Of a DNA stretch of 64,000 bases, positions 32,971 to 63,473 are shown piece by piece. The stretch comes from Cyanophora paradoxa CCMP329 (Eukaryota; Plantae; Glaucophyta): NCBI GenBank assembly GCA_004431415.1, contig QPMI01000589.1, positions 49,973 to 113,972 on the forward strand, given 5' to 3'. Position 1 is the first letter of the stretch, and each line of letters begins with the position of its first letter. The notes below the pieces were generated by a model. The model made no database searches and was not told the DNA's origin. It saw only the letters and a list, made by a program, of their open reading frames with translations. The position numbers were made by a program, and so were the translations under genes.

Positions 32971-35403
32971 ATGAAGCGCGATGGCAAGGGGGCCTCGAGC
33001 TCGAGCAACGACGACGACGAGCCCGGCGCGGCGGATTTGAGACGCGGGCGCTCGCGACTGTCAGCTTCAATCGATGCAGCGGTGCGGAAGTCAGCTGCGC
33101 TGGATCCTGTGCCGGCTGGCGGTCATGATTGAGCGCGCAGGAGGAGGCGGCCGACGCATCCTCGCCAATTGCAATGCTCCCCGACGAGCTGCTCATGCAG
33201 ATTCTGCGGCTCGTGGCCCGCGAGGTCGGCACGCGCCCGGCTGCGGGCTGCGCGGCCTGACTCCCCCGGCAGCTGCCTTCGGACGAGGAACCGTACGGCC
33301 AATGCCGGTGCCGGTGGCCCGCGGCGCTATGCAGCGTGAACGAGCTCCGCGCCGTCTGCAAGCGGTTCAAGTCGGCGATGGACGCGGCGGGCGGGCCGCT
33401 CGCGCTCTTCGAGTCCGCGTGGTGGGGCCCTGGGGTCGAGCGCTGGCTGGCGGGATGCCCCGGCGGCGTCCACGCGTTTCTCGCGGACCAAGCGCCACGC
33501 CTCACCGGCCTGCGCGACGTGGCGGTCGGCGGCGGTGGTCAGTACAGCGCCCGCTTCCTGGCGGCCATCCCGAGCGCATGCTGGCCCTCCCTTTCGACTC
33601 TGCGCATCCCTTGCGGCTTCACGGGCGAGCTCGATCTCCGGGCCTGCTCCGACGCCCTCGCCGCCGTCCCGACCGCCAAGCTGAGCCTCCGCTCCTTCGA
33701 GGCGCGCCGCGCCCGCCGCTGCTGCGCCAGCGCCGCCCGCGCCGCCTCATCACAATCTCGCGCAGGTGAATGTCGGTCGAATGCTGCATTATGACGAGGA
33801 GGCCTCGGCTCTGCTCGGAACGATCGTCCGCCGCTGCGCCCCGTCGCTTCGCAGCCTCAATCTGACGGGTATCGTCTTGGACGGTAACCCCTTCCCCCAC
33901 CCTTGAACACCCCCACCCGCCGCTCTGATGGGCGCGCAGGCCGCTGGGAGGACCTGTTCCCCGTCGCGGGCCTGCGCGAGCTTGGCCTCGGCCTCCCGCC
34001 CCGCCCCGTCGCCCTCGGCGGCCTGGAGCGGAGCGGGGCGGCGGCCACCCTCGAGACCCTCGTCATCCAAGCCGGCGACCCGCTCTCGGGGCCGGGGGGG
34101 CGGGACTCGGCCGTCGCCCTCGCCGCCCTCCCCGCCCTCTCCAGCTTCATCAACGACACCTCGCACGCCGGGATTGTGCACTTAGGCTGGGGTTCCGAAT
34201 GGGCCGTGCTCCCCCCGCTCACCCCCGGCTCCTTCCCATCCCTGCGCTCCCTCACCCTCCGCGGCCCCTCCACGCGCTCCGACTGGTGGGCCGCCGCCCT
34301 CGCCTCCCCCGCGGGGGCCCGCCTCGAGAGCGTGCGCCTCGCCCCTGGCTGAGCCGCTGCTTTCCCGCGCCACCCACACGCGCCCGCGCAGCTCTCGCTG
34401 GAGAAGGTGAACGGCGCGGGGCGCCTGGTGGAGTCGCTGCAGGCCTCTGGGCGGCCCCACGCCCTCCACACGCTCCGCCTATCGGGGTGCCCCCTGCCGA
34501 GGGCGGACGCCGCTCGCCTCCTCGGCTTCGCGGCCGGCCTCCCCGCCCTCCACACCTTCACCCTCTTCCTAACCAACCGCAAAGAGGTACCGCCTTTACC
34601 GCACCCCCGCACGCCTCTCAGATCCGCCCACTGAAATGGATGCGGGGTCGGCAGGACGCGGACGGGTGTGGCCCCGCACCCGATCCCCCGGGCCCGCTCG
34701 CCTCGCTCTAAGCTCCCCCGCCGCAGCGTTGTGCAGCTCCCCCCGGCCCCCGAGGGCTCCTTCCCCGCCCTCCGCCACCTCTCCCTGAGCGCCCCCTCCA
34801 CGCCCTGCGGCTGGTGGGCCGCCGCCCTCGCATCCGGTTCCGGCGCCCGCCTCGAAAGCGTGCGTGCCTGCCTATGCCCCCTGCCCCCCTCCCCTCCTCC
34901 CCTCCAACTCCCCCCGCAGCTCAAGCTGGGGAATGTTGCGGAGGCGTGGCGCGCGCTGGCGGCGCTGCAGGCCCCGGGCCCGCCCCTCGCCCTGCACAGG
35001 CTCTCCCTCTCCTGGTGCCGCTTGGGCTCGGAGGAGGCCCCGCGCCTCGCCGGCCTCCTCGCCGCCTGCCCCGCCCTCAAGCGCTTCTTTGTGCGGGGCT
35101 GCGACGAGGTGCCGCCCTGCTCCCCCGCCCCGCCCCGTCGTCCGACCCCTCCACTGACGCGGCGCGACGCCCGCGCGCCGGCGAGCAGCTCGAAAAGTGC
35201 GCGTCCCGTCCCCCGTCCCCGCGTCCCGCAACCCCTTCCCCGCCTCCGCCCGACCTGAGCGCGGCGGCGGCAGGTTCCTGGCGGGCGGGGGCGACGCGGA
35301 GGCGGCGGGGCCGCGCCTGCTGCGGGAGCTCGAGGCGCGCGGGGTGGACGTGGACGTAGAGGGACGCAAGACACACACGGATCCCCCAAGCCCGATTTGC
35401 TAA
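32971..35403 (+). CDS. F-box/LRR protein, family 2 copy A
   Basis: SPIAMLPDELLMQILRLV F-box; repeated GSFPALRxLxLxGPSTxxxWWAAALAS exons. Confidence 0.7.
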
Positions 35404-35929
35404 ATTCACACCAAGGAATATTAAACGGGTACCCGCTTCGCTGCCCATGAGATCGGGCCCCGGCGGGGGCGGAAGATGGCGGGGGAGGGGGCCGGGAGGG
35501 CGGGAGGGGGGAGGGGGGGCGAGTCTTCCAGCGGCCGTGTAAAGCTTCCTATCGTTCTTCGGTCAGGGAATCGATCCGCGCTCTTCTATATATATCCCGG
35601 CCCGGGCTTCGGAACGGAGACGGGCGGGCAGAGGGCGGCTCCTCAGGGCCTCAGCGCGCGAACATGGCGAACGGCTGCACGCGTACGGGGCGACCGGTTC
35701 CGTTCGGGTAGAGGGGGGTACAGGCGCATTGCGGCGCGGGGCGGGCGGGGCGGGGGCGCACGGAGGGCTCCGCGACCGGCGGGGGCGCGCCCCCGCGCAG
35801 GTGGCCATGCATATGGACGAGGATGGCCGCGTCCCGGGCGCGCTGCTCCGGGGGCGCCTGCGAGCCATGGCTCAGCCCGCAGGGCCCGGGAGGGGCGGGG
35901 GTACGGGGGCGCGGGGGCAGGCCTGGCGG

Positions 35930-36339
35930 ACGGGGGCGGGGACCGGAGGGAGGAGAATGGGTTGTCGACGAAGTTGACGTCCCCGAGGCGGAGGGGCGCG
36001 GCGGCGAGGCCGGGAGCGCCTCAGGGCCTCGAGGCGGCTGCAGTGGACGAGGAGGGCGCGCAGGCGCAGGCGCGGGCCGGGAGGGCGCCGAGGCCCTAGC
36101 TATATAGGGCCGCCGGGAGCCGCTCGAAGGCGTTGCTCGAGCTCGAAGCAGCGAACCAGAGCCACGTGCACTCGAGGCGCGGAGCTCGAGCTCGTCGGGG
36201 AGCGCGCGAGGCGGTTAACGTTGCTGGAGAGGTCGAGCGCCGGCGCCGCGAGGTTCACGAGCCGCGCCAGCTGCGCCCCCGTCACCTCCGCCAGCCCGTT
36301 CCCCAGCGGGTTCAGCACGCGCACGCTCTCCGCGTCCAC
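35930..36339 (-). pseudogene. Degenerate LRR gene fragment
   Basis: Frame-broken LRR-like peptides (LARLVNLAAPALDLSSN, LVHCSRLEAL, LGDVNFVDNPF). Confidence 0.3.
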
Positions 36340-36521
36340 CGTATCGATCTCCGCGGTCGGCCAGGCGAGCAGCTAGCTATAGCGCTAGCGCTTCGAATTC
36401 TATAGAACGCCAGTACCCCGGCACCCATGATCATTCGCATGATCACCCATCGGATCGACGCTGACGCGTGCGGGAGCCGACTCAGCCGAGGCGCCATCGC
36501 GCATAAATCGCCGAGTACAGC

Positions 36522-39019
36522 ATGAATTCGAAGAACAAGCGCGTCTTCACCAACGACAACGACGACCCCGCGGCCGGCGCCGGCGCGGCGGATTTGAGAC
36601 GCGGGCGCTTGCGACCGTCAGCTTCAATCGATGCAGCGGTGCGAAATTCAGCTGCACTGGATAATGTGCCGGGTGGCGGTCATGATTGGGCGCGCAGGAT
36701 GAGGCGGCCGACGCGTCCTCGCCGATTGCAATGCTCCCCGACGAGCTGCTCCTGAAGATCATGCGGATCGTGGCGAAAGAGGTCAGCACTAATCTGGCTG
36801 CCGGCCGCGCGGCCTGCCCTAAGCTGACGTCGACTCTGCTTGGCAGCTCCCTTGGGACCGGGTACCGCCCCAACAACAGCAAGTGGCCCGCGGCGCTACG
36901 CAACGCTAACGAGCTCAGCGCCATCTGCAAGCGGTTCAAGGAGGCGATCGATGCGGCGGGAGGGCCGCTTGCGCTCTTCGAGTCCGTTGGATGGGATGCG
37001 GGCGTCGAGCGCTGGCTGGAGGGGCGCCCCGGCGGCGTCGATGCGTTCCTCGCGGAGCGCGCGCCGCGCCTCACCGGCCTGCGCAACGTGGCATACGAAG
37101 GGTACCCCGAAGTCAAGCACGGGGCCCGCTTCCTGGCGGCCCTCACCTGCTGGCCCTCCCTCGTCTCCCTTCGCCTCATCTCCCTTTCCTCCGACGCCAC
37201 GGGCGAGCTCCGGGCCTGCCTCGACGCCCTCGCCGCCGTCCCGGCCGGCAAGCTGAGCCTCCGCTCCCTCGAGGCCCGCCTTCGCTAGCGCCGCCTGGGC
37301 CGCGCCGCCTGACGAACCCCCACAGGTTCATGCCAACTACAGCTCGCTGTTAGCAGGGGCTAGCAGGGAAGCTTCGGCGCTGCTCGGGGCGATCGTCCGC
37401 CGCTGCGCCTCGTCGCTGCGCAGCCTCAAAATAGAACGAATCGCTTTGGAAGGTAATCCTGTCCCCCGCCCTCGAATACACGCCGCGCTGATGGGCGCGC
37501 AGGCCGCTGGGAGGACCTGCTCCCGGCGCCGGGCCTGCGCGAGCTTCGCCTCGAAATGCTGCCCCAATTCCCGCCCCGCCCGGTCGCCCTCGGCGGCCTG
37601 GAGCGGAGCGGGGCGGCCGCCACCCTCGAGACCCTCGAGCTCAGCGGCGCCGGCGATCCGCTCTCGGGGCCGGAGGGGCCGGATGCGGCTCTCGCCCTCC
37701 CCGCCCTCCCCGCCCTCTCCCGCCTCACCATCGACAGCCCATCCTCGGAACTCAACTCCTTCTCCCTCTTCCTTTCGGAGCCCAACGCGGATTCCGCGCC
37801 CCCCGTGCTCCCGCCGCCCCCGGAAGGCTCCTTCTCCGCTCTGCGAGAGCTCCGCATCGGTTCCTTTGAGGGACCCTCCACGCGCTCCGACTGGTGGGCC
37901 GCCGTCCTCGCCTCCCCCGCGGGGGCCCGCCTCAAGAGCGTGCGCCTTGCCCCTCCCTGAGCTGCCGCTTCCCCTGCGTCGCCCACACAGGCCCCGCAGC
38001 TTTTGCTGTCTTCCGTGAAAGGCGCGGGGCGCCTCGTGGAGTCGCTGCAGGCCTCTGGGCGGCCCCTCGCCCTCCAGTCGCTCGACGTATTCGGCTCTTT
38101 CCTCACGAGGGCGGACGCCGCTCGCGTCCTGGGCTTCGCGGCCGGCCTCCCCGCCCTCCACACCCTGACCTTATACTTTAGCCGCCACGAAGAGGTGCCG
38201 CCTTTACCGCACCCCCGCAAGACTTTCAGACCCGCCCTCTGAAACAAGGCGGGGCCGGCAGGACGCGGACGGGTGTGCCCCCGCCCCCGATCCTCCGGTC
38301 CCGCTCGCGCCGCTCTAATTACAAGGCGCGCCGCAGCGCAGTGGAGCCCTCCCGGGCCCCCGAGGGCTCCTTCCCCGCCCTCCGCCACCTCTCCCTGAGC
38401 GGCCCCTCCACGCCCTGCGGCTGGTGGGCCGCCGCCCTCGCCTCCCCAGCCGGCGCCCGCCTCGAGAGCGTGCGTACCCCCCCCCGCCCCCCCCCCAGTC
38501 CTCGACTCCCCCTGCAGCTCTCGCTGGAAAAGGTTCCGGAGGCATGGAACATCCTAGCGGCCCTGCAGGCCTCGGGCTCGCCCCCCGCCCTGGGTAGACT
38601 CTCCTTTCACGATTGCTACGTAGGGGGAGGGGGTCTCGCCCGCCTCTCGGACGTTCTCGCCGCCTGCCCCGCCCTCCGCTCGCTCTCGTTCATTCGGTGC
38701 CCCTCCGGCGCGGAGGAGGCCCCGCTCTTCGCCGGCCTCCTCGCCGCCTGCCCCGCCCTGCGTGGACTGGTCGTCATGGGCTGCGACGAGGTGCCGCCCG
38801 CCCCCGTTCCGCCTTCCGGCCCCTCCACTGACGCGGCGCGGCGCCCGCGCGCCGGAGAGCAGCTCGAGAAGTGCGCCCCCGCTTCCTCTGACTCCCGCCT
38901 CCGCCCGGCCTGATCGCGGCGGCAGGTTCCTCCGGGGCGGGGGCGATGCGGAGGCGGCGGGGCCGCGCCTGCTGCGGGAGCTCAAAGCGCGCGGGGCAGG
39001 CGTGTACTGCGGCCCGTAG
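36522..39019 (+). CDS. F-box/LRR protein, family 2 copy B (tandem paralog)
   Basis: SPIAMLPDELLLKIMRIV; colinear exons with strong nucleotide similarity to 32971-35403. Confidence 0.72.
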
Positions 39020-39905
39020 TACTGCGGCGCGCGTGTACTGCTAAGTGAGCTCGATCGCGAGCTATAGCTGGCTACAGCTGCAGTCACAGCTACAGCTAGA
39101 GCTGGTCGACGCAGCCGACGTCGGGAGCGGATTAGGAAGAGTGAATCGTGGTAGGAGTAATCGTGTCACGATCAGTTCTTCATGACCATGCCAGTTCTTA
39201 GTCTGAGCGGGGCGTGCGGGCGGATCCGGACTCCGGAGGGCCCGGGACAGCTGCAGGCAGTGTTTCGAAATTTATTAATTAGCTGTAGACTCTGAGCTTG
39301 ATCTCGAAAGGGCTACAGGTGAATTCCACTTGTTAACTCGAGCTCTAGAGCTTCGAATTCGCCGCGCCACTCTAGATCTATATGATCTATAGCTACAGCT
39401 AGCTGGAGCTTGGGCCCCATGGCCAGCTGCAGGGCACCATGGCCACCTCGTCGTGGTACTAAGGGCCGGGGCCGCCGCCGGGCCGGGGGCGCTGGAAATT
39501 TCGCGATCGATGGAATGTACAACGCATTGATATCGATTCACCGTGTCACTGATTCAATACGTGTATACTAAGTTACATTATTCGAAGCTATATAGCTATA
39601 TTATGATTATGCAACAGAAACGAAGGACAGCGTTATGATTAGCTGCACTTGTACATGCGATCGCAAATTCAACTCGAAGCCTAGCTATATATGTGGGCTC
39701 TTGCCAAGGGTCGAGCTCTCGAGCTTGCCCCTTCGCTGTCAATGCATTGTTAACCCTCGGAGGTTGATGAGTCACGCGTTGCGGAGGTTGCATTGTTATA
39801 TTGCATTCGGGGAGGCAGGGGGACTAACACGTCCAATGTACCCCCCGGGGGCCTCCCGGCCTCTAACTAGGCTCGGACTCTAACTGAATGCTGTACCCCC
39901 TGCGG

Positions 39906-41444: not shown

Positions 41445-42113
41445 ATGGACCTACAACAGGGGAGCGCGGCGTGGCACGCTGCGCGCCGCGAAAAGCTAAC
41501 CGCCTCGAACTTTGCCGCCGCGTGCGGCATAAACCCCTGGAAATCCAGGGCCCGCCTGTGGGCGGAGCTAAGCGGGATAGCGGAGGAAAACAACTTTGAC
41601 AACCCTGCCCTAACCTATGGGCATGACTATGAGCCCCTCGCGGTCTCTATCTACAAGGCACTGAACGATAACGTGGACATTCAACATACTGGACTGCACG
41701 AACACAAAGAAATGCCGTTCCTCGCCGGGAGCCCCGACGGACTTATAGGAAATGATAGGATTTTAGAGGTGAAATGCCCTTACAAGGGCGAACTTTATGA
41801 TAGAGTTCCTACCTATTATATGCCTCAACTGCAAGGACTTCTGGACATCACGGGCCGCGAGTGGGCCGAACTTTTTTGCTTCACTCCTCTGCGCGTGCAA
41901 ACGTGGTACGTCAGGCGCGACGAGAGGTACATCGAGCTCATGAGGAAGTGCTTACATCTATTTTGGATGCACGTCAAGGAGGGCACGCCGCCCGAGCCCT
42001 ACAGCGATCGAATGAAGTTAGAGAACCTCAGCGAGGAGCAGGCGGCGCTGCGCGAGTTTAAGTCGTACGCCCTCCTCTCAGAGTCTAGGCAGACTACTTC
42101 TGTCCCAGGCTAG
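41445..42113 (+). CDS. YqaJ/lambda-exonuclease-like PD-(D/E)XK viral recombinase
   Basis: QGSAAWHAARREKLTASNF, YGHDYEP, FLAGSPDGL, LEVKCPY, YYMPQLQG. Confidence 0.93.
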   Translation: MDLQQGSAAWHAARREKLTASNFAAACGINPWKSRARLWAELSGIAEENNFDNPALTYGHDYEPLAVSIYKALNDNVDIQHTGLHEHKEMPFLAGSPDGLIGNDRILEVKCPYKGELYDRVPTYYMPQLQGLLDITGREWAELFCFTPLRVQTWYVRRDERYIELMRKCLHLFWMHVKEGTPPEPYSDRMKLENLSEEQAALREFKSYALLSESRQTTSVPG

Positions 42114-42621
42114 GTCTTTGGAATCTTAATATAAATTTTCCGGGACCCGGGACAGGCCTTGTCGGACATGGCAATGTCAGAACCTTCCCGATCATCTAGA
42201 TCTATAATGATTCTAGGGAGGGTCCAGACACATCTCTTGTGCGGACCACTTCTGTCCCAGGTCTTTGGAATCTTAATATAAATTTTCCAGGGACCCGGGA
42301 CAGGCCTCGTCGAACAAACCTCTTCATGGGCCAAGATTTCGTGCATGCATCGGCCGCAGCTCATGCGAAAAATCATGTCTGATCCGATCCTGATCATGAC
42401 GTCCTGCAAATTGAAGAATCGTCTGACCGGGAGTGTCCCGGGTCCCTGGAAATTTTATATTAAGATTCCAGAGACCCGGGACAGATCTACCTAGAGGGAA
42501 CATCCAAAATGCTGTACCCTCCCACCCCGTGATCTTTCGAATTCAATCTGATGGGCCGACCTGAGTGACGGTGTCCTGGTCCCGGAAAGTTTATATTAAG
42601 ATTCCAAGGACCTGGGACAAG
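42097..42621. repeat. Four copies of a ~54-bp quasi-palindromic repeat (42097-42154 and 42249-42302 forward; 42434-42484 and 42572-42621 reverse)
   Basis: Consensus CTTCTGTCCCAGGTCTTTGGAATCTTAATATAAATTTTCCAGGGACCCGGGACA. Confidence 0.92.
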
Positions 42622-42685
42622 AGCAATGCATTTTCGCACGACGTTGACATAGCCTGATCACGAGAGAAAAATGTACCCCGATCTA

Positions 42686-45600
42686 TCAAATCCGCCGATG
42701 GAGCAGCGAGTAGCAGTCGCAGAACAGATCTTTCACCTCCAAGTAATCCGGCCCCACGCCAGCCCAGCGCTGCCTTGCTTGGCGCTCTGCAACATCTTCG
42801 AGAGTGTCTTCCTTGACCCACGTGATGCACTTGCGCTTGCGAGAGCCGGCGCCCTCCTGCCCTTCTCGGGTCCGTTTTTCCCCGGACCGGGCCCGTCTCA
42901 CCCCATGTACTTTTCGAGCAGGTACTGAATCACCCGCCACGACTGCTGCGCAAGCTTGGCCTTCTCATTGTCCGATGCATCGAGTTTAGGGGCCCGCTCG
43001 TCCAGACTCTGCAGCACCGCGTAAGCCTCCCGGCCCTCCGGTGATGCGAGCGCCGCGTAGGCTTCGTCCGACCAAAGCATACAGCTGTCGCCGGCCAGCT
43101 TCTCGTACCCCGGCCCAAAAAGTCGCTTGAAAAGCTCCGCAACCTTCGAGACCCTGTGGTACTCAGTAGACGAGGCGATCTCGGCCATGTCGCCGCCGCG
43201 CTTCAGCACAAGGATGATCCGCGACATCAGCGGGATCGAGTAGAATGACTTCCACAGCCAGGCCACGTCGCTCTCGGTCAGCGCGCTTGCGTCCTTGGCC
43301 AGGAACGCAGCGGTCGCTAGGCGCGCGAGTGCAGCAACCTTCTCCACGTCGACCTTAGCAAGCGAATCGCGCGAATGCCACCAGGAGTCCAGCAGCATGT
43401 ACAGTTCGGTGATGTCCAGGGCGGAGACTCGAGTACGTACTTGATCTCGCGCTGCCGCTGCTCCTTCTCCTCTTTCGGCCCCTTGTTTCCCTGATCCTCC
43501 GTGACCCGCACGTTCATCACGGCGCAGGTCGACAGCAGCCGCAGCCGCGCGGCCACGGCGAGGCGCCGCGTCGGCATGCCGGCCCGCCGACTCCCGTGAT
43601 GGCTCGCCTTCAAGTCCAGATAGCGCTGCGTGTCTGCAGTGCTAGCTCTCTCATCATCGCTCTCACGCCAGTGCGCGGTCGCCTCGCCCACGCTGACGGA
43701 GGGCGCGGACGCGCGGCTCTTGCGCACGGCGACGAGCAGGTGCTCTCCGCCGGGCGGCTCGCCGCGCCTGCGCAGCTTTCTCACTCGGAACAGCAGCTGC
43801 ACGATGTCGTCGGCCTCTAGCTGCGCGGGTTCGGCCTGGAAAACGCCGTAGATCTTGTCAAAGTGCGCTTCCGGAAAGTCCACGCCCGCCCCGAGCGCGG
43901 ACGTCGCGATGAGCACGTCGCAGGCCTTGTACGCGCCCTCCTCCGAGACGTCGATCGACACTACGCGGACCGGGCCCTCGTTCGTGAAGCGCACGCTCTT
44001 CTCCTTCGCCTGCCCAACGATGAGCCCAATTGTGAACGGTGCGCCGCTGCCGTCCTCGGGCCCTGCCTCGAGCTGAGTCACGTACTGAGCGCCGCCCAGG
44101 CTGAGCTGCTCCAGCGCCTGCTTCGAAATCTTGTCTGCTAGCTCATTCGCCTTGGCCGGCGTCTCCGCGATGATCATGGCCCGCGAGCGCCCAGGTCGGC
44201 ACTGCACCATGATGTCCTTCTCGACGTGCGCCGGGCTGTCTGACACGCGCATCTTCCAGTCGCAGGTCCGGCGCGAGTTGTGCAGGAGCCCAAGGCGCGC
44301 CCCGCGCTCCAGCGCGGACTCCGCGAGGTACGCGAGATCGACCGGCCGGACGAAGCCGTCCATCGCCACGATGCGCGAGGCCTTCATCACGTTTCGCATT
44401 AGCTGCACGCAGCGCGCGTTTCGGGGCATTGACCGCACGCCCATGTGCAGGCCGGCGGGTTCGAGGGTGCCGCTCGAAGTGAGGTGCTTCGTGAGGGAGG
44501 AGAGCTCGTCCAGCACGATCATCAGCGGCGCAGTCGACCAGCCCGCCCAGTCCTCAAGTACCTTGTGCAGCGAGTCGATCGTGATGACGACGCACCTGCA
44601 CTTCGGATGGCGGTAGCCCCACTTGCCGTGCGTCCCATTTGAGCTCTCCGGCGGCTTCTGAATGTCCATGTACAGCACGGCGTCCTCAGGCAGGCCCACG
44701 TCATCCAGGCGGCGCTTCAGGTCGCGGGAGAAGGCGCGGCGGCAGGTCAAGAGGATCACGCGCCAGCCCCCCTCGAGGGCTGGCTTCAGGTACGTCTCGA
44801 TGAGGGCCTGCGTCTTCCCCGTGTTGAGGCCCGAGCAGATGACGTCGACCTGGGCGGCCCCCGGCTCCAGCGGACCGAACGTGGAGGTGAGCAGCCCTGG
44901 ATCGCGCGTCAGGTAGTCCGTATCCACGACCTTCACGCAGTGCGGTGTCAGGCCCGTCGATTCGAGTGCGATCAGGAGCGACGGGAGGGCCACGTCGAGC
45001 GCCACGGGCTGGGACGGGTCCGTCACGTAAGACGCCGCCGTCTCGCTGCAGCTCCCGTCTCCAGCTCCCCCTCCTGCTCCACCTCGACACCGTGCGCCCG
45101 AATCGCGATTCTGAGGGCCGGCGATCCTGGCTGATCGCTCATCTTCAGGGTGATTGTTCCGTCGGGCTCGACTGCAATGTCTTGAACGCGGCGGGGGTCA
45201 TTCAGGCTGATCTCAGTGCGCAACGCCGCCCCCGCCCGCCAGATCTCGTCCCTCACCAGCTTGTTCTCGCGCAGGAGGCTCAGGAACCGATCGAAGTCCG
45301 GGAGCGGAGCCTGGGCGTCGCCCGTCAAGCTCAGCGGGGGGTGGGGCGGCTCCTTGCGGGGGAGGAGCTCCTGGCGCCGCAGTCCCGAGCAAGCCCCCCG
45401 AGCTGCGGCGCCCTGCGGCCCCTGCGCCACCCCTGCGCCGATCCCTGCGTCGGCCCTGCAGGACGTAGGCTCCTGTGTCGTCCCCCCGAGCTCCAGGCCG
45501 CTAGATGTCCCAGCAGCCAGGTCGCAAAGGCGCAGGCCTCCGGGCTCTGCAGGACGTAGGCAGCCTTGAGCCCGTTGTGCGATGTTCGAGAGAAAGTGAG

Positions 45601-45851
45601 GCCTCCGAAGCTCTCCGCGCATGCACGGGCGGCCGCGGTGCTCGTCTCGTCTTCCGCGTCGGAGAAGTGCTTGGACATGATGTGCGGCGGGTGAAAGATA
45701 CAGAAGACCATTCCGAGATCAGCGCTGCAGACCTTCTGGACGCAGACGAGGGGAAGCGAGTGAAGAAAAGCTCTTCTTGCGGGCTCAGGTCCACGGGAGT
45801 TACCCCCGGCAGACGGGAGAGTAGACTGTCGGAGCACGTCGAGGTGGCCAT
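42686..45851 (-). CDS. Herpesvirus UL9-like origin-binding SF2 helicase with a long N-terminal region; split by several frameshifts
   Basis: ICSGLNTGKT (Walker A), VILLTCRRAF, VVITIDSLHKV, IVLDELSS, IVAMDG and DVLIATSALGAGVDF..HFD in ORF 43317-45026; flanking ORF pieces abut in shifted frames. Confidence 0.8.
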
Positions 45852-46026
45852 GCTCTCGGGTTAGGCCTGCTGTTTCGTGTTAGGCTTGGAAAATTTTCAG
45901 TGGCACCGGCCGGAAACTGCACACCTTGAGAACTCGAACTCGAACTCCAAGGCTCGGTGAATTGGCGCTAGCTGCACTGTCGACGTCGACTGTCGGACCG
46001 TCGACGTCGGACTTCGGATGTCTCGT

Positions 46027-46080
46027 CTTCTGTCCCAGGTCTTTGGAATCTTAATATAAATTTTCCAGGGACCCGGGACA
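46027..46080 (+). repeat. Fifth copy of the 54-bp repeat
   Basis: Identical to 42249-42302. Confidence 0.92.
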
Positions 46081-46467
46081 CTCTGGTCTGACGACGCTGC
46101 AGCTCGAAGCGCTCAACTGGGTCCGGTTGACGGCACACAGGCTATCAGGGTGCCAGGCCTAGCCTAGTACGTAGGCTGACCGTCGGACCAGTACTGGCGG
46201 TTCAGTTGAAGCCGAGTACTACTAGCGCTAGCTATAGCGCCAGCGCTAGCTGTAGGCTAGTACTAGTACTAGATCGAGAGACGGTACGGCGCGCCACAGC
46301 TAGCGAGCTCGCGCTCGCTCGCCTTTGCGCTGAAGCTTAGAAAATTTTGGGCTCACGCGGTCGTTCCACGTGTTCTGTCCGGACAACCTGTACCCCAGCT
46401 GTCCAGCCAAGTAGTCAGAGCTCTCCAATCCTGCGGCGCTTGGGCCCCGTGCTTCTCAGAGCACTTG

Positions 46468-48119
46468 ATGGAGGCCAGCGTGTGCGTTCTGTGCTCTCGG
46501 GGAGCCGCCGCTTCGTTCCCGCCGATGCAGAAGTGCGTCTCGGTCGGCGACCCCTCTCTCCGCGGAGCGGCTAGCTGGAGAGCTCTCCCGATGCCGCGCG
46601 CTTACACTGCGGTGCGCAGGCTCGGTTGCTGTGGCCGGCAACCTTCGAGAGCTCGATGGCACCCAAGCTGAACCACCTCGCCGCATCGCGGAGGTGCTGG
46701 CTCCCTCTTTCGCAGCTCTTTCGCTTACACTTACACTTTCGCTAGACCGTGCCGCACAGCCTCGCGCTCATTTCCCCCACGTTCGCAGAACTTCGGCGTC
46801 GGCGCAGGTTCCGGGATCTGCGACCGCGCCTCCCGCAGCTCGAGCCGGCGTCTGCGGCGACCCGCGCATGCATCTAGATCCTATTCTGAAACCCGTGCGT
46901 CGATCCGGGGTCCCGGGCTCGCGTTCCTGCGCCTCCCGGACCCTCACACTGCTCCTGTTTGCATCCTAGCTAAGACCTTCCTCGCCCGCAGCCGGTCTCG
47001 TCCTCGGCACATTGTGAGCGGCATCAGTGGAGCTGGAGTTCCGCACTTTATGCAGGCCCGTGCGCCCTTTCCCGCCCCGCCCCGCCCAGCCCCGCCCCGC
47101 CTCGCGTGCGCTATAGCTAGCTAACCCTGTCGCGCGCGCCGCAGAGGGTTCGTAGCCGGAGGGCTCGCAGGCCGCGGCCCGGACACCTCCGCCGCCGTCG
47201 GCGCCGACATCGAGAACGGCCGGCTGGACGAGACCCTCGCCGGCTTCGGCTCCTCGTGCCGCCCCTACTCCTACAAGCTCGGCGGCGTCTGGCAGACCTA
47301 CATCCGCGGCATCGTCCCCAAGGCCCCGCTCTCCCTCGGCGAGAGCCAGCCGGCGCTGGAGGCGATCGCGATCCCCGTCGCCCAGTTCAAGGACCCGGCG
47401 CCCGACGTCGGGCCCTTCCTCGTCAAGCCCCACACCAAGGGCAAGGGCAAGCGCACCCGCAACTCGGCGCCGGCCTTCCTCCCGCCCCAGCCCCCCGCCA
47501 CGGCCCCCCAGCAGCGCCCCGGCCAGCAGCGCATCGACGAGATGCTGCCGCGCCAGGTCCGGCCCCGCGTACCCCCCGCCTTCCCTGTACCTCCCTCCCC
47601 CTCGCCCCGTTCCTGATCCAAGGGCAGGGTACCCCGACGAACGGCGGCGCGGGCCCGAGCGGCTACGGGAGCTCGGCCTCCTCCGCGAGCGCCGACGGCC
47701 CCAGCCCCCTCCCCGGCCCCGGCGCCGTCCTCACCGCGATCCAGGGCTTCGGGGCCCAGCAGGAGGCCGAGCGGCGGGCGCTGGCGGCGCGCCAGGCGCG
47801 CGAGGCGGAGGAGCGGCGCCAGGCCCTCTGGGCCCAGCGCCTGCAGGCCACCATCGCCTTCCGCGCCGAGCTGGACTCCGGCTTCCGCGCCGGCCAGATC
47901 GCCGGGGCGGAGGCCTCGGAGCGCTGGCGGGCGTTCGAGGCGGAGTCGGCGGGGCTGGCGAAGGGCCTCGGCTACAGCTACCGGCGCGTGCCCGTGCTCA
48001 AGGACTACGCGTCGGCCGCGGCGCGGGAGGCCTCGCGGGCGGAGATCGACGCGGCGGAGGAGCAGGCGGCGCGCGAGGAGGCCGAGGACAACGCGCGCTT
48101 CCGGCACCTGCACCACTGA
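46468..48119 (+). CDS. Hypothetical intron-containing gene within the viral region (5' exons uncertain)
   Basis: GT-AG intron 47557-47627 joins ..RIDEMLPRQ to GTPTNGG.. in frame; another intron ends at 47143; coiled-coil-like C-terminus. Confidence 0.5.
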
Positions 48120-50459: not shown

Positions 50460-50747
50460 TTAGAAAAGGTTCCGGACCAGGCCCGAGAGCTGCGGGCCCA
50501 GGCGCCGGGCGGCGTAGTAGAGCGCGGCCGCCGCCGCCGCAAGGATCAGAAGGCGCGGCGGGCCGCGCGCCGGCTCCTCCAGGGTCAGGTCCACGGTCTC
50601 CGGCCCGCGCGCCGGAGCCGCCAGGATCTCGGGCTCGGAGCAGAGGGACTTGGGCCCGCGGCGGCGGCGCTGCTTGGGCGCCGAGGCGGCGGCGGTGAGA
50701 AGGTCCTCAGGCTCCTGCTTGATACCTGCGCAATCGGTGAAGTCCAT
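50460..50747 (-). CDS. Small viral protein with a C-terminal TM helix
   Basis: MDFTDCAG..RLLILAAAAAALYYAARR. Confidence 0.55.
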   Translation of the reverse strand: MDFTDCAGIKQEPEDLLTAAASAPKQRRRRGPKSLCSEPEILAAPARGPETVDLTLEEPARGPPRLLILAAAAAALYYAARRLGPQLSGLVRNLF

Positions 50748-50815: not shown

Positions 50816-51480
50816 GCGTCATTTACGTCCGCGTCATTTACGTCACGGAGTTTGCCGGCGACTCGGGACTCGGGCCCAACTTCTCCCGGTAAGTTCGAGA
50901 CTTGAACTCGGCGGGGGTACCCCCCGGTGTCCTAGTGTCCTAGTGTCCTAGTGCTACTAGCTAGGTGGTATCGATATCTAGCTAGCTAGCGCTAGCGCTT
51001 GCTTAATTAATTAACCTGAAGGGTCGCGTCATTTACGTCAGCGTCATTTACGTCACGGAGTTTGCCGGCGACTCGGGACTCGGGCCCAACTTCTCCCGGT
51101 AAGTTCGTCACGACCAGTAGCTACTAGTACCGCTAGTACTACGTAGTACTACTTAGTACTACTTGGTACTACTTAGTACTACTAGCTTAGTACTAGTAGC
51201 CACCGATACTGGTACAGCTTTTATAGATTTAAGCATTCATTCAATGTGAATAACGATAATAGTAATAATAATAACGATAAGTAATAGGGATACCCTATTT
51301 TTCCAAGTCTCGAACTTACCGGGAGAAGTTGGGCCCGAGTCCCGAGTCGCCGGCAAACTCCGTGACGTAAATGACGCTGACGTAAATGACGCGACCCTTC
51401 GGTAACCTCCGCAACCCTTCAGGTAAATGTCAGGTAACTTCAGTTGAGTTAATTAAGCAAGCGCTAGCTAGCTAGATATC
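50816..51480. repeat. Non-coding inverted-repeat locus with TGACG iterons and an AT-rich core
   Basis: Perfect 90-bp inverted repeat 51018-51107 / 51311-51400; extra direct copy at 50816-50904; outer imperfect arms at ~50973-51010 / 51449-51480. Confidence 0.92.
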
Positions 51481-51889
51481 ACAGCTCTACCTTGCCCAAG
51501 TTGATGGTATCTAGCAGGGCCTGCTCCTCCAAGTCTGCACCGCCGCCGCCGCCCAGCGCTAGCGCTAGCTCGATACCGCCTCCGGCCTTGATCTCCCTTG
51601 GCTCCAGCCACCTGAGGGGCTCAGGCCACCTCCTCCTGGTGAAGCCGGTATCGTTGCTCTTGTCCAGCTTGAGGTAGCGGTAGGGCGCCGGCGCCGGCCA
51701 GTCCGGCCTGTGGCCGCTTGCCTCCTTGGCTATGTCCTTGGGCCTACGCGGTCGCAGGTCCGCCTTGGCCTTCGCCCTCTGCAAGGGGCCCAGCGCCTTG
51801 AACTTCGGTGCCTTGGTCGCCGGCAGGGCCTTCGGCTGGGGCTTCACCGCCTTCGGCTGCTGAGGCCTTAGCTGCTTCGATTTCGGCAT
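51479..51889 (-). CDS. Basic Lys/Pro-rich viral protein
   Basis: 136-aa ORF overlapping the 3' part of the upstream ORF; upstream TTTTCTCA. Confidence 0.45.
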   Translation of the reverse strand: MPKSKQLRPQQPKAVKPQPKALPATKAPKFKALGPLQRAKAKADLRPRRPKDIAKEASGHRPDWPAPAPYRYLKLDKSNDTGFTRRRWPEPLRWLEPREIKAGGGIELALALGGGGGADLEEQALLDTINLGKVEL

Positions 51890-52127
51890 ACTTCTTGCTC
51901 ATAAATGAGAAAAGCGCCTCGAAGTCGGCCTTTATCTCCTCCTTGGTCCAGGATGTCACCTGATCCGGGTCACCTGAGAACGGCGCATCGAACGCCACGT
52001 GGAGCGATTTGCAGGCCTGAGCTATCATTGGCTCGGGCCAGGCCAGCTCGATCAGCTGAAGGTAGATGTTCAGGGCCTTGTCGAGCTTGGCGCCCTGAGA
52101 GACTAGCTGGGAGATAGCGGGCTCCAT
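51744..52127 (-). CDS. Viral hypothetical protein
   Basis: 127-aa helical ORF; upstream ATTTTCTAAA. Confidence 0.55.
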   Translation of the reverse strand: MEPAISQLVSQGAKLDKALNIYLQLIELAWPEPMIAQACKSLHVAFDAPFSGDPDQVTSWTKEEIKADFEALFSFMSKKYAEIEAAKASAAEGGEAPAEGPAGDQGTEVQGAGPLAEGEGQGGPATA

Positions 52128-52212
52128 GGTACAGCAGAGCTTTAGAAAATGGCGCCAAGTCCAAGTCCTTTTTTACGGGCGAGGCCTGGGCCGGGGGCCA
52201 GGGCCGAGTCCC

Positions 52213-52264
52213 AACTCCGTGACGTAAATGACGCTGACGTAAATGACGCGGACGTAAATGACGC
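52213..52264. promoter_or_regulatory. Tandem GACGTAAATGACG array in a divergent intergenic region
   Basis: Three tandem units, same motif as in the 51-kb inverted repeat. Confidence 0.6.
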
Positions 52265-52389
52265 CGAATTTTCAAGTTGCCCTCACCTGAAACTCAGCTG
52301 AGCGCTCACCTGACCCTCACCTGAACGGCCTCAAAACCGCAGCCCCGCCGCGCCCTCTCCTCACACTTCAAAGCCAAGAGAAATCAAGA

Positions 52390-52659
52390 ATGTGCATCCC
52401 CACGTACTTCACCTGCTGTCTCACCTTCGGCATCTTCGCATACGTCATATACGACGATGAGTTCGACCGAAACACGTTCTACTTCTGCAAGCTCCTTCGC
52501 GACATTTCGTCGGAGCACCGCAAGGGCGATGAGTATGATTGGATTCAACTGCTCCCCCTCAAGAACGAGATCGTACTGTGGAGAGAGAAGTGCATTGTAG
52601 GCAGGTTCAAGATTAGCTCGATTCGTGTAGCCGTCGTAGAGGATCTGATGGTGAATTGA
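52390..52659 (+). CDS. Small viral hypothetical protein
   Basis: 89-aa ORF with lower GC and a hydrophobic N-terminus. Confidence 0.45.
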   Translation: MCIPTYFTCCLTFGIFAYVIYDDEFDRNTFYFCKLLRDISSEHRKGDEYDWIQLLPLKNEIVLWREKCIVGRFKISSIRVAVVEDLMVN

Positions 52660-52774
52660 ACACGTGTTTTACCTGAATCACCTGAGCGCTCACCCGAGGT
52701 CAGCTGAAGTCGGGTGGGGCGCCCTTAAATATTTTCTAGCGCTAGGCTGAAGCACACTCTAAGCTAACGCAAAC

Positions 52775-53557
52775 ATGGCCACCGTCCGCAACGCCAACGA
52801 GATCGACCCCGCCAAGCTCGCCTTCGAGATCGACGCCACCGGCCGCATCAAGGCCAAGTACGACGGCCTGCAGGGCCTCATGATGTACGCGCCGCCCATG
52901 GTCACGATCAACCCGTGCATCAACACAGAGCAAGGCAAGGCGTGGAGCGACGAGAAGAAGGCCTTCGTCATGGAAGAAAACGGCGGATTTTACACGCTGG
53001 ACCTCACCGATCTCAGCGCCGTCGACGGCCAGACGAACCCAGCCGCGGACGAGTTCCTCAAGCTGCTGGAGGCCCTGGACGCGAAATTCTGCGAGTTCGT
53101 GCAGCAGAACCAGGCCAAGCTCAAGGTCTCGCCCGGCCGCTCCCTCTCCAAGGATCAGATCTCGGTGCTGCAGACCCCCAGCGTGCGCATCAAGGTCGAC
53201 AAGGAGTCGGGCCAGGCCTTCTACAAGTACCTCAACATGCGCATCCGCACCCAGACGATGGCGGGCAAGCGCAAGACCGTGCCCGTCGTCGACATGTCCA
53301 ACTACCTCATCACCGAGCGCGCCACCATCGGCACCGGAGACCTGGTGGCGGCGCTCATTAAAATCGACACCGCCTACGCCATCCCCGAGGGCAAGTTCGG
53401 CCTCAAGTGGTCCTTCCTCGCCGTGCAGCAGTGCAAGGTCGGCGCCTTTCGCTTCGCCGGGCGCGCCCCCGAGCTGGCCTTCAAGCCCTACGACAACGAG
53501 GCCGATTTCGAGCCCTACCTAAACCCCGAGTCTATGTACGCAGCCCCCATGCAGTAG
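52775..53557 (+). CDS. NCLDV-type OB-fold single-stranded DNA-binding protein (T7 gp2.5-like)
   Basis: YTLDL..EFLKLLEALDAKF..GDLVAALIKIDTAY..GKFGLKWSFLAVQ and an acidic/aromatic tail. Confidence 0.75.
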   Translation: MATVRNANEIDPAKLAFEIDATGRIKAKYDGLQGLMMYAPPMVTINPCINTEQGKAWSDEKKAFVMEENGGFYTLDLTDLSAVDGQTNPAADEFLKLLEALDAKFCEFVQQNQAKLKVSPGRSLSKDQISVLQTPSVRIKVDKESGQAFYKYLNMRIRTQTMAGKRKTVPVVDMSNYLITERATIGTGDLVAALIKIDTAYAIPEGKFGLKWSFLAVQQCKVGAFRFAGRAPELAFKPYDNEADFEPYLNPESMYAAPMQ

Positions 53558-56067: not shown

Positions 56068-57456
56068 CTAATGGAAGCGGCGGTAGGCGCCGCCGTTGGT
56101 GAAGGTGATCTCGTTGTAGTAGCGGCAGTAGATGTCGGCCACGGGCAGGTTGGGTGCCGTGTAGGTCTTGAGCGTGGTGAGCGTGAGCTCGATGGTCTTG
56201 AAGGCGCCCATGTCGAGGCCGCCGAACATCTTGGTGTTGTCCGCCACGTCCGTGCCGAAGGGGAGCGAGTAGATGAACTCCGTCCCGAACTGGCCCACGT
56301 TGCGGGGCTGGATATCGCTGCTGTGGGCGTCGTGGGCCGCAAGGGTCACGTTCCCCGTGGTCCCCGGCACGTTATCGTGCCCCGACCACGGGTGCGGGTG
56401 CAGCGCGTCGGCCACGTCGGCGGCCGCCGTCCCGTCCATCGAGGTCACGCCCCGCAGCAGCTCGAGGTGCTTGCGCGTGGGGGCGTGCGTGTGCTCCTTG
56501 TGCGCGATGGCCGTGCGCAAAAAGTGCGCATCGTGGTTCGAGCTGTCGACCACCTTGATGTTGTCGCACTTCAGCTCGATCTTGTCGAGCGGGCGGAAGC
56601 GCCAGAAGTGCTCGCCGTTGTCGGTGTGCGGCTTGTCGCGCACCACCACGATCAGCTCGTAGCAGATCCCCGTGAAGGGCAGGCGGATGGCGGCGCCCGA
56701 CGTGAACTGGACGTGGTAGTGCTGCACGTACTTGCCGGCCCACGTGAACGAGTTCGGGTGCAGCGCCAGCTCGCGCGAGTCGATGTGCACGTAGCGCAGG
56801 ATGAGCTTGGTGTCCAGGCTGACGCTGCTCGTCAGGCTGGTGTTCGTGTGCAGGCCGCCGTCCACGAAGGAGGCCGTCACCTCCTTCTGCGACGCAAAGG
56901 TGATCTGCAGCTTCATCTCGTTGCCGGTCCCGCGGATCTTGTGGAGGGGCACGGCGAACTTTCGACCGAAGCCCGTCGCGATGCGGATCGGCACGTACAG
57001 CGTGTTCGGGGCCTTGCCCCGGCGGCGCAGCGGCTGGTGCGCCCAGAGGTTGTTCACCATGTCGACGTGCTCGGTGACGGACTTGTCGTCCTCGAACTCG
57101 CCGTAGATGGCGTCGTGGTGGCCGTCGTACTCGTGGATCAGCTGCGTGCCCACGAAGATCTTCACCTTCTTGAGCAGCACGTAGCCGGCCTTCGGGATGT
57201 AGAAGTGGTCGGCGTTCGTCAGCGCCGGCAGCGTCACCCGGAGCCAGGCGTCGTTGAACATCGGCGCCGAGTGCGGGATGACGATGTCGACGGTCTGGCC
57301 GAAGGTGACGCCCGACTGCACGGGGCTCACCTCGAGCACCTCGTCCACGAACGGCATCGCCGTGTCGAAGGTCTCGTGCACGTGCACCGACGCGTCGGAG
57401 CTGCGCAGCGAGTGGTGCAGGGCGGTCGTGGGGGTGGAGATGAGCGCGGAAGCCAT
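56068..57456 (-). CDS. Double-jelly-roll major capsid protein, NCLDV-type
   Basis: TFGQTVDIVIP..WLRVTLPAL..GYVLLKKVKIFVGTQLIHEYDG, TLYVPI, FIYSLPF..GGLDM, YCRYYNEITFTNG; 462 aa. Confidence 0.9.
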   Translation of the reverse strand: MASALISTPTTALHHSLRSSDASVHVHETFDTAMPFVDEVLEVSPVQSGVTFGQTVDIVIPHSAPMFNDAWLRVTLPALTNADHFYIPKAGYVLLKKVKIFVGTQLIHEYDGHHDAIYGEFEDDKSVTEHVDMVNNLWAHQPLRRRGKAPNTLYVPIRIATGFGRKFAVPLHKIRGTGNEMKLQITFASQKEVTASFVDGGLHTNTSLTSSVSLDTKLILRYVHIDSRELALHPNSFTWAGKYVQHYHVQFTSGAAIRLPFTGICYELIVVVRDKPHTDNGEHFWRFRPLDKIELKCDNIKVVDSSNHDAHFLRTAIAHKEHTHAPTRKHLELLRGVTSMDGTAAADVADALHPHPWSGHDNVPGTTGNVTLAAHDAHSSDIQPRNVGQFGTEFIYSLPFGTDVADNTKMFGGLDMGAFKTIELTLTTLKTYTAPNLPVADIYCRYYNEITFTNGGAYRRFH

Positions 57457-61177: not shown

Positions 61178-61654
61178 TCACAACGGATTGAGCGCGGCGT
61201 AGAGGGCGATTAAGTAGGCGTCGCAGAGGTCGTCGAGCTTGCCGTTTCGATCCGCGATGTCGGCGAGCTCGGCGGGTACGAGGTCGCGGCACTTGTCCAC
61301 GGCGCCCCGCTTGCGCTCCTTGTAGCTCGGGTTCGAGATCTTGAAGAAGTGCTTGATGGCGCGCGGGCTCACGATCCGCGCACGCCCGTACAGCAGGGCG
61401 TGGAGCGTGCACTCGATGCAGCGATTGATTCCCGTCCTCTGGCCCTCGATCGCGATCTGGTCGGGAAGGCCGAAGGCGCTATGGCCGCGAGTAACCTCCA
61501 CCAGGCGCGCAACCAGGCGGCCACAGCAGCGCGCAGACGGGAAGAGGGCGATCTTCTGCCAGTCGAGAATCTGGGATTCCTTTGTCTGCGGATCGAATTC
61601 GATGAGGCACCATGCGAAATTGATGACCCCCACATCCACGCCGAGGATCTTCAT
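61178..61654 (-). CDS. RuvC/poxvirus A22-like Holliday junction resolvase
   Basis: MKILGVDVGVINFAWC, IAIEGQ, YKERKRGAV, KLDDLCDAYLIA. Confidence 0.92.
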   Translation of the reverse strand: MKILGVDVGVINFAWCLIEFDPQTKESQILDWQKIALFPSARCCGRLVARLVEVTRGHSAFGLPDQIAIEGQRTGINRCIECTLHALLYGRARIVSPRAIKHFFKISNPSYKERKRGAVDKCRDLVPAELADIADRNGKLDDLCDAYLIALYAALNPL

Positions 61655-62065: not shown

Positions 62066-62983
62066 ATGGGCATGACAGAGGACGGCCAGCAGCTCACGCC
62101 CGAGCAGGTCAACGCCTTCCTCGACAACTCGAAGACGGGAGGCATCGAGCGCATGGCCTGCCTGCCCGAGCTCAAGTGGTTCGACGTGAACACCGTCAAG
62201 TCCGACGCCACGGTCGTCTGCGTCGGCAAGCGGCGCACGGGCAAGTCCTTCTTCCTCCGCGATCTCATGTTCAACCTCTCCGGCACCTTCCCGGGGGGTA
62301 TCGTGATCAGCCAGACCGATCGCCTGAACGGCTACTGGAAGCAGTACATCCCGCAGCGCTTCATCTGGCCCAAGTACAACCCGGGCGTGCTCTTCCATTT
62401 ATTCAGGAGGCAGCAGGCGATCATGCAGCACAACAAGTCCGAAGACGTGCTCGCGGGAAAGGAGGATCCCGTCGACCCGCGATTTTTCGTGCTGCTCGAC
62501 GACGTGATTTCCGACGCTCGGCTGCGGTACGACGAGGCCCTCAACGAGCTCTTCGTGGCGGGGCGCCACTACAAAATCATGACCCTTATCACGACGCAGT
62601 ATGCCAAGGGCATCAATCCCGTCCTGCGCTCCAATACTGATCTGGCTGTCATTTTCAAGTGCTCGCAGGCGATGCAGCGCGAGGCCCTCGCAAAGGAGTG
62701 GGGCGACATCATCTCCCAGCGCGCCTTCTACTACCTGCTCGATAAGTACACGCAGGATAACCACTGCCTTATCATCGATTCTTCCAACAACTCTACGAAC
62801 CCTCTGGACGTTTTGTACGTCTACAAGGCCGAGGAGCCGCCCCCCTTCCGCATCGGATCCAAGGAGTACTGGGAGGGCGAAACCGTCAACGGAGAAAATC
62901 TCGTGGGTCCGGACGACGGCACGGTGGACAAGACGCTCCTCGGCATGATCTCTAACTTCCGCAAGTCTCGGGGTCTTGCGTAG
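62066..62983 (+). CDS. A32/FtsK-HerA family DNA packaging ATPase (true start may be 61914 via a frameshift)
   Basis: VCVGKRRTGKS, FVLLDDVI, LNELFVAGRHYKI..ITTQYAKGINPVLRSNTD. Confidence 0.95.
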   Translation: MGMTEDGQQLTPEQVNAFLDNSKTGGIERMACLPELKWFDVNTVKSDATVVCVGKRRTGKSFFLRDLMFNLSGTFPGGIVISQTDRLNGYWKQYIPQRFIWPKYNPGVLFHLFRRQQAIMQHNKSEDVLAGKEDPVDPRFFVLLDDVISDARLRYDEALNELFVAGRHYKIMTLITTQYAKGINPVLRSNTDLAVIFKCSQAMQREALAKEWGDIISQRAFYYLLDKYTQDNHCLIIDSSNNSTNPLDVLYVYKAEEPPPFRIGSKEYWEGETVNGENLVGPDDGTVDKTLLGMISNFRKSRGLA

Positions 62984-63473
62984 GAAAGTTGAGATGGGCC
63001 TGTGCACCATGCCAGAGTCTCGCCATGCGATCATAATCGCGGGCGGCCTCTTCTGCGGTGCTGTGTCGTTTAAAGTAACGACCATGGTGCTTAGACTGAA
63101 TGTCAGTCTGATATTTTCCAGCATGGAATCGAACTCCTTTGAAGCCGGTCTTATTGTTCTTGTTCTTGCCGCGGTTGAGACAGTTTTGCTGATGAGTTAC
63201 GAATGCCAGGTTGCAAGCACGATTATCGTTCACATCTCGGTTAATGTGATCTACCACTAAACCTTTGGGTGGCTTGCCAAGGACAAGGTGGTAGATGTAA
63301 ATATGCTTGCGTGTTCCTGGAATTGTAGTAAAAGGGCGACCTCGCAAGACCAACCATTTATACTTGGAGAGCTCCTCGTACCGCTCGGGGTCGATCTTAG
63401 TCCACCCAACGACACTCGTACCTCCCTTGCCGCGCCCAAGCTCTCCGCGGCTGTGCAAAGGGAGATACTCCAT
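62952..63473 (-). CDS. HNH-AP2 homing endonuclease
   Basis: VVDHINRDVNDNRACNL, TGFKGVRF, TAEEAARDYD..HGAQAHLNF. Confidence 0.93.
   Translation of the reverse strand: MEYLPLHSRGELGRGKGGTSVVGWTKIDPERYEELSKYKWLVLRGRPFTTIPGTRKHIYIYHLVLGKPPKGLVVDHINRDVNDNRACNLAFVTHQQNCLNRGKNKNNKTGFKGVRFHAGKYQTDIQSKHHGRYFKRHSTAEEAARDYDRMARLWHGAQAHLNFPTQDPETCGS

Follow-up and report, generated by a model that had tools for sequence, protein, structure and literature searches.

A long inverted repeat as a candidate internal replication origin of an endogenous mriyavirus-like virus in Cyanophora paradoxa

A perfect 90-bp inverted repeat around a 203-bp AT-rich spacer was found in the window (i.e. the whole 64-kb stretch of DNA that was analysed), about 11 kb inside a mriyavirus-like virus that starts at about 39.7 kb and is estimated to be integrated in 20-30 near-identical copies. 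The repeat is best explained as a fixed internal cis-acting site of this multi-copy endogenous virus and, with a probability of about 0.5, it is an internal origin of viral replication that likely also acts as a two-way enhancer. The architecture of the repeat, the low stability of its spacer, its fixed position and the gene content of the virus were observed. Anatomy and gene content fit the origin that the initial annotation had proposed as one of two alternatives, and from them we infer a role in replication.

Architecture of the repeat and its spacer

The perfect arms, described in the initial annotation together with outer imperfect arms, a third direct copy and an AT-rich spacer holding TAGTAC and AAT runs, were all recovered (Table 1). 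The two 90-nt arms were exact reverse complements, no extension being possible at either end, whereas the longest perfect arm within 2 kb reached 13-18 nt in 20 Markov-1 sequences of window composition. Their GC content was 59%, compared with 35% in the spacer (42% in its first 100 nt and 28% in its last 103 nt). The outer arms were homologous to each other, with indels. Each perfect arm was one copy of a module: copy 1 was 99% identical to the left arm over 50816-50897 and formed 89 nt of pairing with 51304-51392. A fourth copy, partial and absent from the initial annotation, carried three 15-mers. A 14-mer core occurred nine times in the 64-kb window, always within 50816-52264 (expected 0.00).

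Read on the TGACGTAAATGACGC strand, copies 1 and 2 pointed left and copies 3 and 4 right, so that the set was symmetric about the spacer, which was flanked by outward-facing TGACG arrays that we take to resemble bZIP sites. The copies were mosaic, copy 3 having its outer bases in common with copy 2 and its inner bases with copy 1. Copies 1 and 4 were followed by AATTTT, each directly upstream of a gene (for copy 4, the 52390 ORF and the gene for a single-stranded DNA binding protein, SSB), and the perfect arms were followed by the TTAATTAA outer arms, with no gene; the right perfect arm faced the 3' end of an opposite-strand gene. The 95-aa ORF next to copy 1 encodes IKQE, a basic run and VDLT, which presumably resemble SUMO, nuclear-localisation and SUMO-binding motifs, respectively, as well as a hydrophobic tail. 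Judged from its sequence, its product is a candidate early regulator.

By nearest-neighbour energy, no other duplex in the 64 kb was as unstable as the spacer at the 50, 100, 150 and 200-bp scales. Its left part held an off-centre hairpin, absent from the initial annotation and significant at 2 and 1 of 200 shuffles, with five exact TAGTACTAC (both strands counted), a nonamer that we take to be one base from the circovirus/nanovirus nick nonamer. A literature search on this nonamer found no paper, and the three Rfam matches all lay far below the gathering score. The AT content was 58% in the hairpin half and 65% in the whole spacer, the halves of which aligned at a score of 38 (24 ± 8 when shuffled; 14 of 300 shuffles as high). 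With one mismatch allowed, there were 26 matches to the TAGTAC runs, of which 16 lay in 50949-51270; such runs also occurred at 46214-46272 and in the host flank.

Table 1. Coordinates of the virus, its main genes and the parts of the repeat in the window
Feature	Position	Strand	Evidence or remark
Endogenous mriyavirus-like DNA virus	39690-64000		left edge approximate; runs off the window at right
YqaJ / PD-(D/E)XK nuclease	41445-42113	+	Pfam E 1.6e-28
UL9 / CyRepA1-like SF2 helicase, reading frame broken	43317-45026	-	Pfam Herpes_ori_bp E 3.7e-10
95-aa ORF, reads away from the repeat	50460-50747	-	no Pfam match; annotated in other copies
Module copy 1 (GC-rich box and two TGACGTAAATGACGC 15-mers)	50816-50904	-	directly upstream of gene 50460-50747
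Left outer imperfect arm (TTAATTAA, CTAG runs)	50973-51017
Left perfect arm = module copy 2	51018-51107	-
Spacer, 203 bp, 35% GC; putative unwinding element	51108-51310
Off-centre imperfect bulged hairpin, tandem 10-bp TAGTACTACT-type repeats	51114-51212		z -3.3
AT-richest spacer part, AAT runs	51213-51310		z -1.3; fold not significant
Right perfect arm = module copy 3	51311-51400	+	homology to copy 1 reaches inward to 51304
Right outer imperfect arm, short internal duplications	51401-51480
136-aa basic ORF, ends at right outer arm	51479-51889	-	no Pfam match; annotated in other copies
Module copy 4 (diverged GC box and three 15-mers, then AATTTT)	52187-52267	+
Probable T7-gp2.5-type SSB	52775-53557	+	Foldseek
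Double-jelly-roll major capsid protein (MCP)	56068-57456	-	Capsid_N E 1.4e-8
A22 / RuvC-like Holliday junction resolvase	61178-61654	-	Pfam Pox_A22 E 6.8e-8
A32-like packaging ATPase	62066-62983	+	Pfam Pox_A32

The enclosing virus, its copies and its relatives

The left edge of the virus was placed where the low-depth flank contig ended (39715), depth beyond this point being up some tens of fold. The Pfam scan of 36 ORFs gave seven clear matches (YqaJ nuclease, Herpes_ori_bp helicase, DUF5767, double-jelly-roll capsid protein, A22, A32 and HNH-AP2) as well as DUF5679, and thus bore out the A22-like enzyme of the initial annotation. No integrase was found among these 36 ORFs, nor was a DNA polymerase, the ORFs covering 24.3 kb of the element only, and an Atlas search with the terminal ORF gave no match.

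The helicase, found in the same position in other viral copies, also matched plasmid CyRepA1-type clusters (Atlas 0.97-0.98). Its Pfam match spanned only positions 42-164 of 820 and did not cover the UL9 C-terminal DNA-binding domain, no primase domain was detected in it, and its predicted structure was unusable (pLDDT 35). The broken frame may come from assembly indels, the Logan contigs differing by 5-6 gaps per 1.4 kb there. The SSB gene, located 1.3 kb from the repeat, probably encodes a protein of T7-gp2.5 type, as indicated by its structural model: the top eight Foldseek rows were CP312R, gp2.5 or Enc34-type chains (best E 0.016, none below 0.001), and a sequence search against the PDB gave no match.

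The HNH-AP2 gene (62952-63473, minus strand) adjoins the ATPase gene, and in one other copy (P0078) the gene model joins the ATPase straight to the next ORF, which suggests that HNH-AP2 is an optional homing insert. A second nested inverted locus (42095-42630), in which a 55-61-bp repeat occurs twice in each orientation and which has an AT core, sits between the convergent YqaJ and helicase genes, and with a fifth copy at 46025-46090, beyond the helicase, these repeats bracket the helicase block. This block (42273-47062) had about 5-6 times the flank depth, compared with 25-39 times for the virus core; the helicases of other copies were 50-93% identical, 99% homologues lay on contigs without a sampled capsid gene, and the block seems to have been exchanged between subtypes or to be mobile on its own. 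The left end (39690-39720) appears common to many copies, with a sharp depth rise and the 40018 ORF outermost wherever sampled; this end and the repeat had a 12-mer in common (found in 5 of 200 shuffles), as well as a 17-mer (in 16 of 200), both treated as chance. EukProt contig tig00000342 held a second capsid gene and DUF5767 after the first, with their order reversed, as would be expected of two adjacent copies in inverted orientation. On the host side, dispersed direct and inverted repeats (77-294 bp, 71-92% identity) at 8400-10450, 18280-19760 and 24300-26300 are likely a gene family or transposon, and a duplicated block with a period of about 3.6 kb and internal 528-bp repeats occupies 33000-38800.

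All 15 capsid homologues found by word search were EukProt proteins; named cluster members bore Cyanophora paradoxa in their accession labels, and close homologues were almost all so labelled. The capsid sequences summed over clusters (34) agreed with the copy estimate based on depth. In four runs, the flank contig (38956-39715) had depths of 75, 18, 141 and 3.9, and the spacer contig, with no differences from the window, had 2185, 346, 2935 and 71, i.e. ratios of 29, 19, 21 and 18, or 0.67-0.83 of the neighbouring viral contig. In three of these runs, a contig (51078-51247) bridged the inner 30 nt of the left arm and the spacer, and in the fourth (X14) the contig held spacer only (51122-51247). 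These data suggest that about 18-29 copies have the same arm-spacer join, no more than have the neighbouring viral genes, although the estimate is rough as depth does not equal copy number and the flank was assumed to be single-copy. Over half the words of 48-57.5 kb were present in all 24 runs listed, which carry one organism code, possibly come from one strain and are not independent.

A second subtype, recognised at 52653-52801 from a contig with 13 gaps and 8 differences (in run X1, depth 2207 compared with 2764), represented about 40-45% of depth where both subtypes were seen; the differences between contigs and window are those among the 40 of 86 listed. The second subtype's spacer did not align at 85%, depth over the spacer being at the level of one subtype, and this divergence means that the family as a whole does not conserve the sequence of the spacer. 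Among the 24 of 103 listed, loose ends of the second subtype kept TGACG/GACGC cores and part of the GC box. None of the joints listed changed strand, which has no bearing on flip-flop of the spacer, as collapsed contigs would hide it.

Gene order was inspected by mapping named cluster members (up to 15 per cluster) to the window and ordering them by accession number, some accessions being placed on contigs by nearness of number. Genes to the left and to the right of the repeat were sampled in 23 of 66 contig groups, and all 23 followed the window order across the interval; the wrap-around order (right-end then left-end genes) occurred in none of these 23 informative contigs among the cluster members listed. 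This collinearity describes gene order across the interval, not the presence of the repeat in each copy. As it holds in 23 of 23 contigs, the random permutation among copies that would follow from the permuted circle of the initial annotation is excluded. In three contigs, two genes next to the repeat seemed inverted, but this was a clustering artefact that disappeared on mapping.

The gene sequences make it likely that the element belongs to Mriyaviricetes, a membership that is likely rather than established because neither HUH nor VLTF3 turned up in the window. The ATPase was 44-52% identical to those of 29 IMG/VR loci, and profiles from these loci matched nine gene families in the element. 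The SSB family occurred in 26 of the 29 related loci and the A22-like resolvase in 15, and A22, capsid and VLTF3 were all present in the three loci scanned. In the six frames of 39.7-64 kb, where the element runs off the window, there was no HUH...YxxK pattern. VLTF2 was not identified, and a VLTF3 profile from 28 loci had no match in the window, the VLTF3 of the relatives following the ATPase, which here lies near the window edge, and the last 101 nt of the window did not match the gene family found after the relatives' ATPase (E 0.054). The MCP profile search returned 71 proteins with an E-value gap from 2e-27 to 3e-11, and none of the pattern matches for MCP in viral contigs (4) or for SSB in metagenome contigs (54) was confirmed as a relative; given this gap and the lack of contig relatives, no close free relative was found.

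Possible roles of the repeat

As a replication origin, the repeat would have the TGACG arrays of its inverted arms bound by host bZIP-type factors and its GC box by the viral UL9-like helicase; the AT-rich spacer would then open and be coated by the SSB, and a host polymerase would copy the genome. Recent conversion between copies, or template switching between them, might maintain the identity of the arms. An origin is consistent with the logic of HSV oriS (accessible part of PMC12543377), with the perfect arms and two outlying copies in symmetric outward orientation, and with a spacer whose duplex is the least stable at each of the four window sizes. The arm-spacer join without differences at 18-29 times flank depth in four of four runs (spacer only in X14), the internal and collinear interval in the 23 informative contigs listed, and the match of a positionally conserved helicase to both Herpes_ori_bp and plasmid CyRepA1-type clusters also argue for it. 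In addition, one distant free relative carries a 78-bp near-perfect palindrome between divergent ORFs (L028:587-664). Further nested inverted repeats surround this palindrome (L028:530-870), and by its sequence this region is a candidate origin for that group.

Other observations count against an origin. A comparable internal long inverted repeat with unique flanks was not seen in 28 of the 29 related loci, which are partial (L018 had short tandem palindromic repeats only), and the repeat itself was seen in none of the 29 within the partial sequences available for comparison, BLASTN of the repeat region giving only 19-27-nt matches; the 29-nt double motif had 0 matches in viral and metagenome contigs. 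The diverged spacer of the second subtype, the UL9 DNA-binding domain missed by the helicase match, the low pLDDT and the TAGTAC runs located elsewhere point the same way, and oriS boxes and spacer are far shorter than the 90-bp arms and 203-bp spacer found here. Third-position GC skew, which tips the balance neither way, was -0.015 and -0.227 in genes directed away from the repeat, compared with +0.064 and +0.047 in those directed towards it, one class comprising two genes only. A stronger form of the origin reading is doubtful, namely that this would be the first identifiable mriyavirus origin, oriS-like and opened by the UL9-like helicase, with the TAGTACTAC hairpin serving as the nick site of an HUH enzyme encoded beyond the window, and intact in some 20-30 copies that would still be replication-competent.

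The position of copies 1 and 4 just upstream of AATTTT genes could be explained by a promoter alone. It is possible, if tentative, that the repeat is only a promoter and enhancer cluster, in which a TGACG-array module duplicated four times drives the neighbouring genes to the left (50460-50747) and to the right (the 52390 ORF and the SSB gene), probably via host bZIP-type factors and with no replication role, the inversion and the AT-rich spacer making a two-way, nucleosome-poor enhancer. Mriyaviruses have no RNA polymerase and are inferred to depend on the host nucleus (accessible text of PMC11253617), which would suit this reading. AATTTT occurred 20 times in the element versus 3 times in 39.7 kb of host DNA, and AATTTT or an AAATT core lay at most 120 nt upstream of 10 of the 21 starts tested; moreover, the second subtype keeps its motif cores and loses the spacer sequence. 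However, an enhancer needs neither perfect symmetry nor a spacer of extreme low stability, the perfect arms lead into the TTAATTAA outer arms or face a gene 3' end, and the bZIP likeness of the TGACG arrays is itself a presumption. Whichever reading holds, the repeat likely acts as an enhancer, and this could be all that it does; the finding would then be a modest one.

The other alternative of the initial annotation was the joined terminal repeats of a linear genome integrated as a permuted circle. This reading is weakened, and its remaining form appears improbable, in which linear virion DNA has its 135-170-bp inverted terminal repeats joined, the circle integrates at a fixed site at about 39.7 kb, and the A22-like enzyme resolves the joint. 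The arms and the bulged hairpin of about 100 nt between them loosely resemble poxvirus resolution sites (accessible part of PMC8956199). The imperfect repeat totals 135-170 bp with unique genes outside, like a head-to-tail joint, and the collinearity is compatible with one fixed integration site. However, a 203-bp loop disfavours cruciform extrusion, further module copies lie outside the repeat, and the wrap-around order was absent from the 23 contigs. The lack of an integrase among the 36 ORFs agrees with a report that mriyaviruses are missing integration genes (10.64898/2026.06.19.733378, as far as its text is accessible), and some mriyaviruses have direct terminal repeats (PMC11253617, same part). 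The resolvase argues little for termini because it is a core mriyavirus gene (PMC11253617) whether or not the repeat is present, and occurs in 15 of 29 loci, in the available parts of which the repeat was not seen. Nor is the repeat a junction of poxvirus type, because the spacer is not a centred palindrome: its halves pair weakly, and the hairpin lies off-centre with 58% AT, compared with 84-93% in poxviruses (PMC8956199, in the part available).

A neutral recent inverted duplication, arising in one subtype's ancestor through template switching and having no special function beyond that of one original promoter, seems quite improbable. The module copies are mosaic, the second subtype differs at the repeat, and the copies of a subtype are near-identical overall, so that the perfect arms need no selection; but the outer arms are old enough for many indels around a perfect inner 90 bp, and long inverted repeats are usually unstable unless kept. 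Despite MITE-like size and terminal inverted repeats, and indels of the window relative to short-read contigs elsewhere, the host MITE considered in the initial annotation or a long-read assembly artefact is hardly credible, because the join is present without differences at viral-gene depth in the short-read contigs of three of four runs; in addition, the repeat motif is absent from 39.7 kb of host DNA and no target-site duplication of at least 5 nt was found outside the arms (one match lay within the arm ends).

Relation to known viruses and origins

The virus family, its occurrence in a glaucophyte and the inverted repeat around an AT-rich core as a kind of viral origin are already known. 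No description of this repeat or of any mriyavirus origin was found in the literature searched, which covered few subscription papers, and the accessible text of PMC11253617 describes neither an origin nor an internal inverted repeat. That text proposes that giant viruses have their closest small relatives in mriyaviruses, whose replication it predicts, from gene content alone, to be rolling circle with a host polymerase. With a candidate of 0.5-1.5 kb in many near-identical copies of an alga that grows axenically (PMC12344493, accessible part), the origin question is directly testable. The fixed gene order and the common left end raise the further question of defined-end insertion without a detected integrase.

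Mriyaviruses comprise the Yaraviridae and 'Gamadviridae' and have genomes of 35-45 kb without a DNA polymerase; their core of MCP, A32 ATPase, RuvC/A22 resolvase, nuclease and helicase matches the gene set of the element (PMC11253617, accessible text). Related regions have been reported in a Glaucocystophyceae assembly (10.1101/2025.04.19.649669), and an integrated relative in Phaeocystis has short tandem repeats at its flanks (10.1101/2022.07.28.501842), both according to the portions available. The element has in common with Mriyaviricetes the double-jelly-roll MCP, A32 ATPase, RuvC/A22 resolvase, PD-(D/E)XK nuclease, T7-type SSB and UL9-related SF2 helicase, whereas it differs in having no HUH or VLTF3 in the window, where it is incomplete, no detected primase domain, and a very divergent MCP (best outside match E 3e-11).

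In poxviruses, inverted late promoters flank an AT-rich imperfect hairpin that is cut by A22 during resolution (PMC8956199, accessible part). Compared with this concatemer junction, the repeat likewise has inverted, possibly promoter-like arms with an imperfect hairpin between them, in an element encoding an A22-like resolvase; in contrast, its hairpin is off-centre and far less AT-rich, half of the spacer is unpaired, unique genes follow on both sides after 135-170 bp, and the whole is stably integrated and internal.

HSV-1 oriS consists of inverted boxes, an AT-rich spacer and a third box, and is opened by UL9 with the SSB (PMC12543377, accessible part). It belongs to an unrelated virus class, its Box 3 is inverted to Box 1 whereas the third copy here is direct to its neighbour, the arms and spacer here measure 90 and 203 bp, and the DNA-binding domain at the C terminus of HSV-1 UL9 was not detected in this virus. 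In architecture only, the two are alike in their inverted arms, AT-rich spacer and extra outside copy, with a UL9-family helicase and an SSB encoded by the virus itself.
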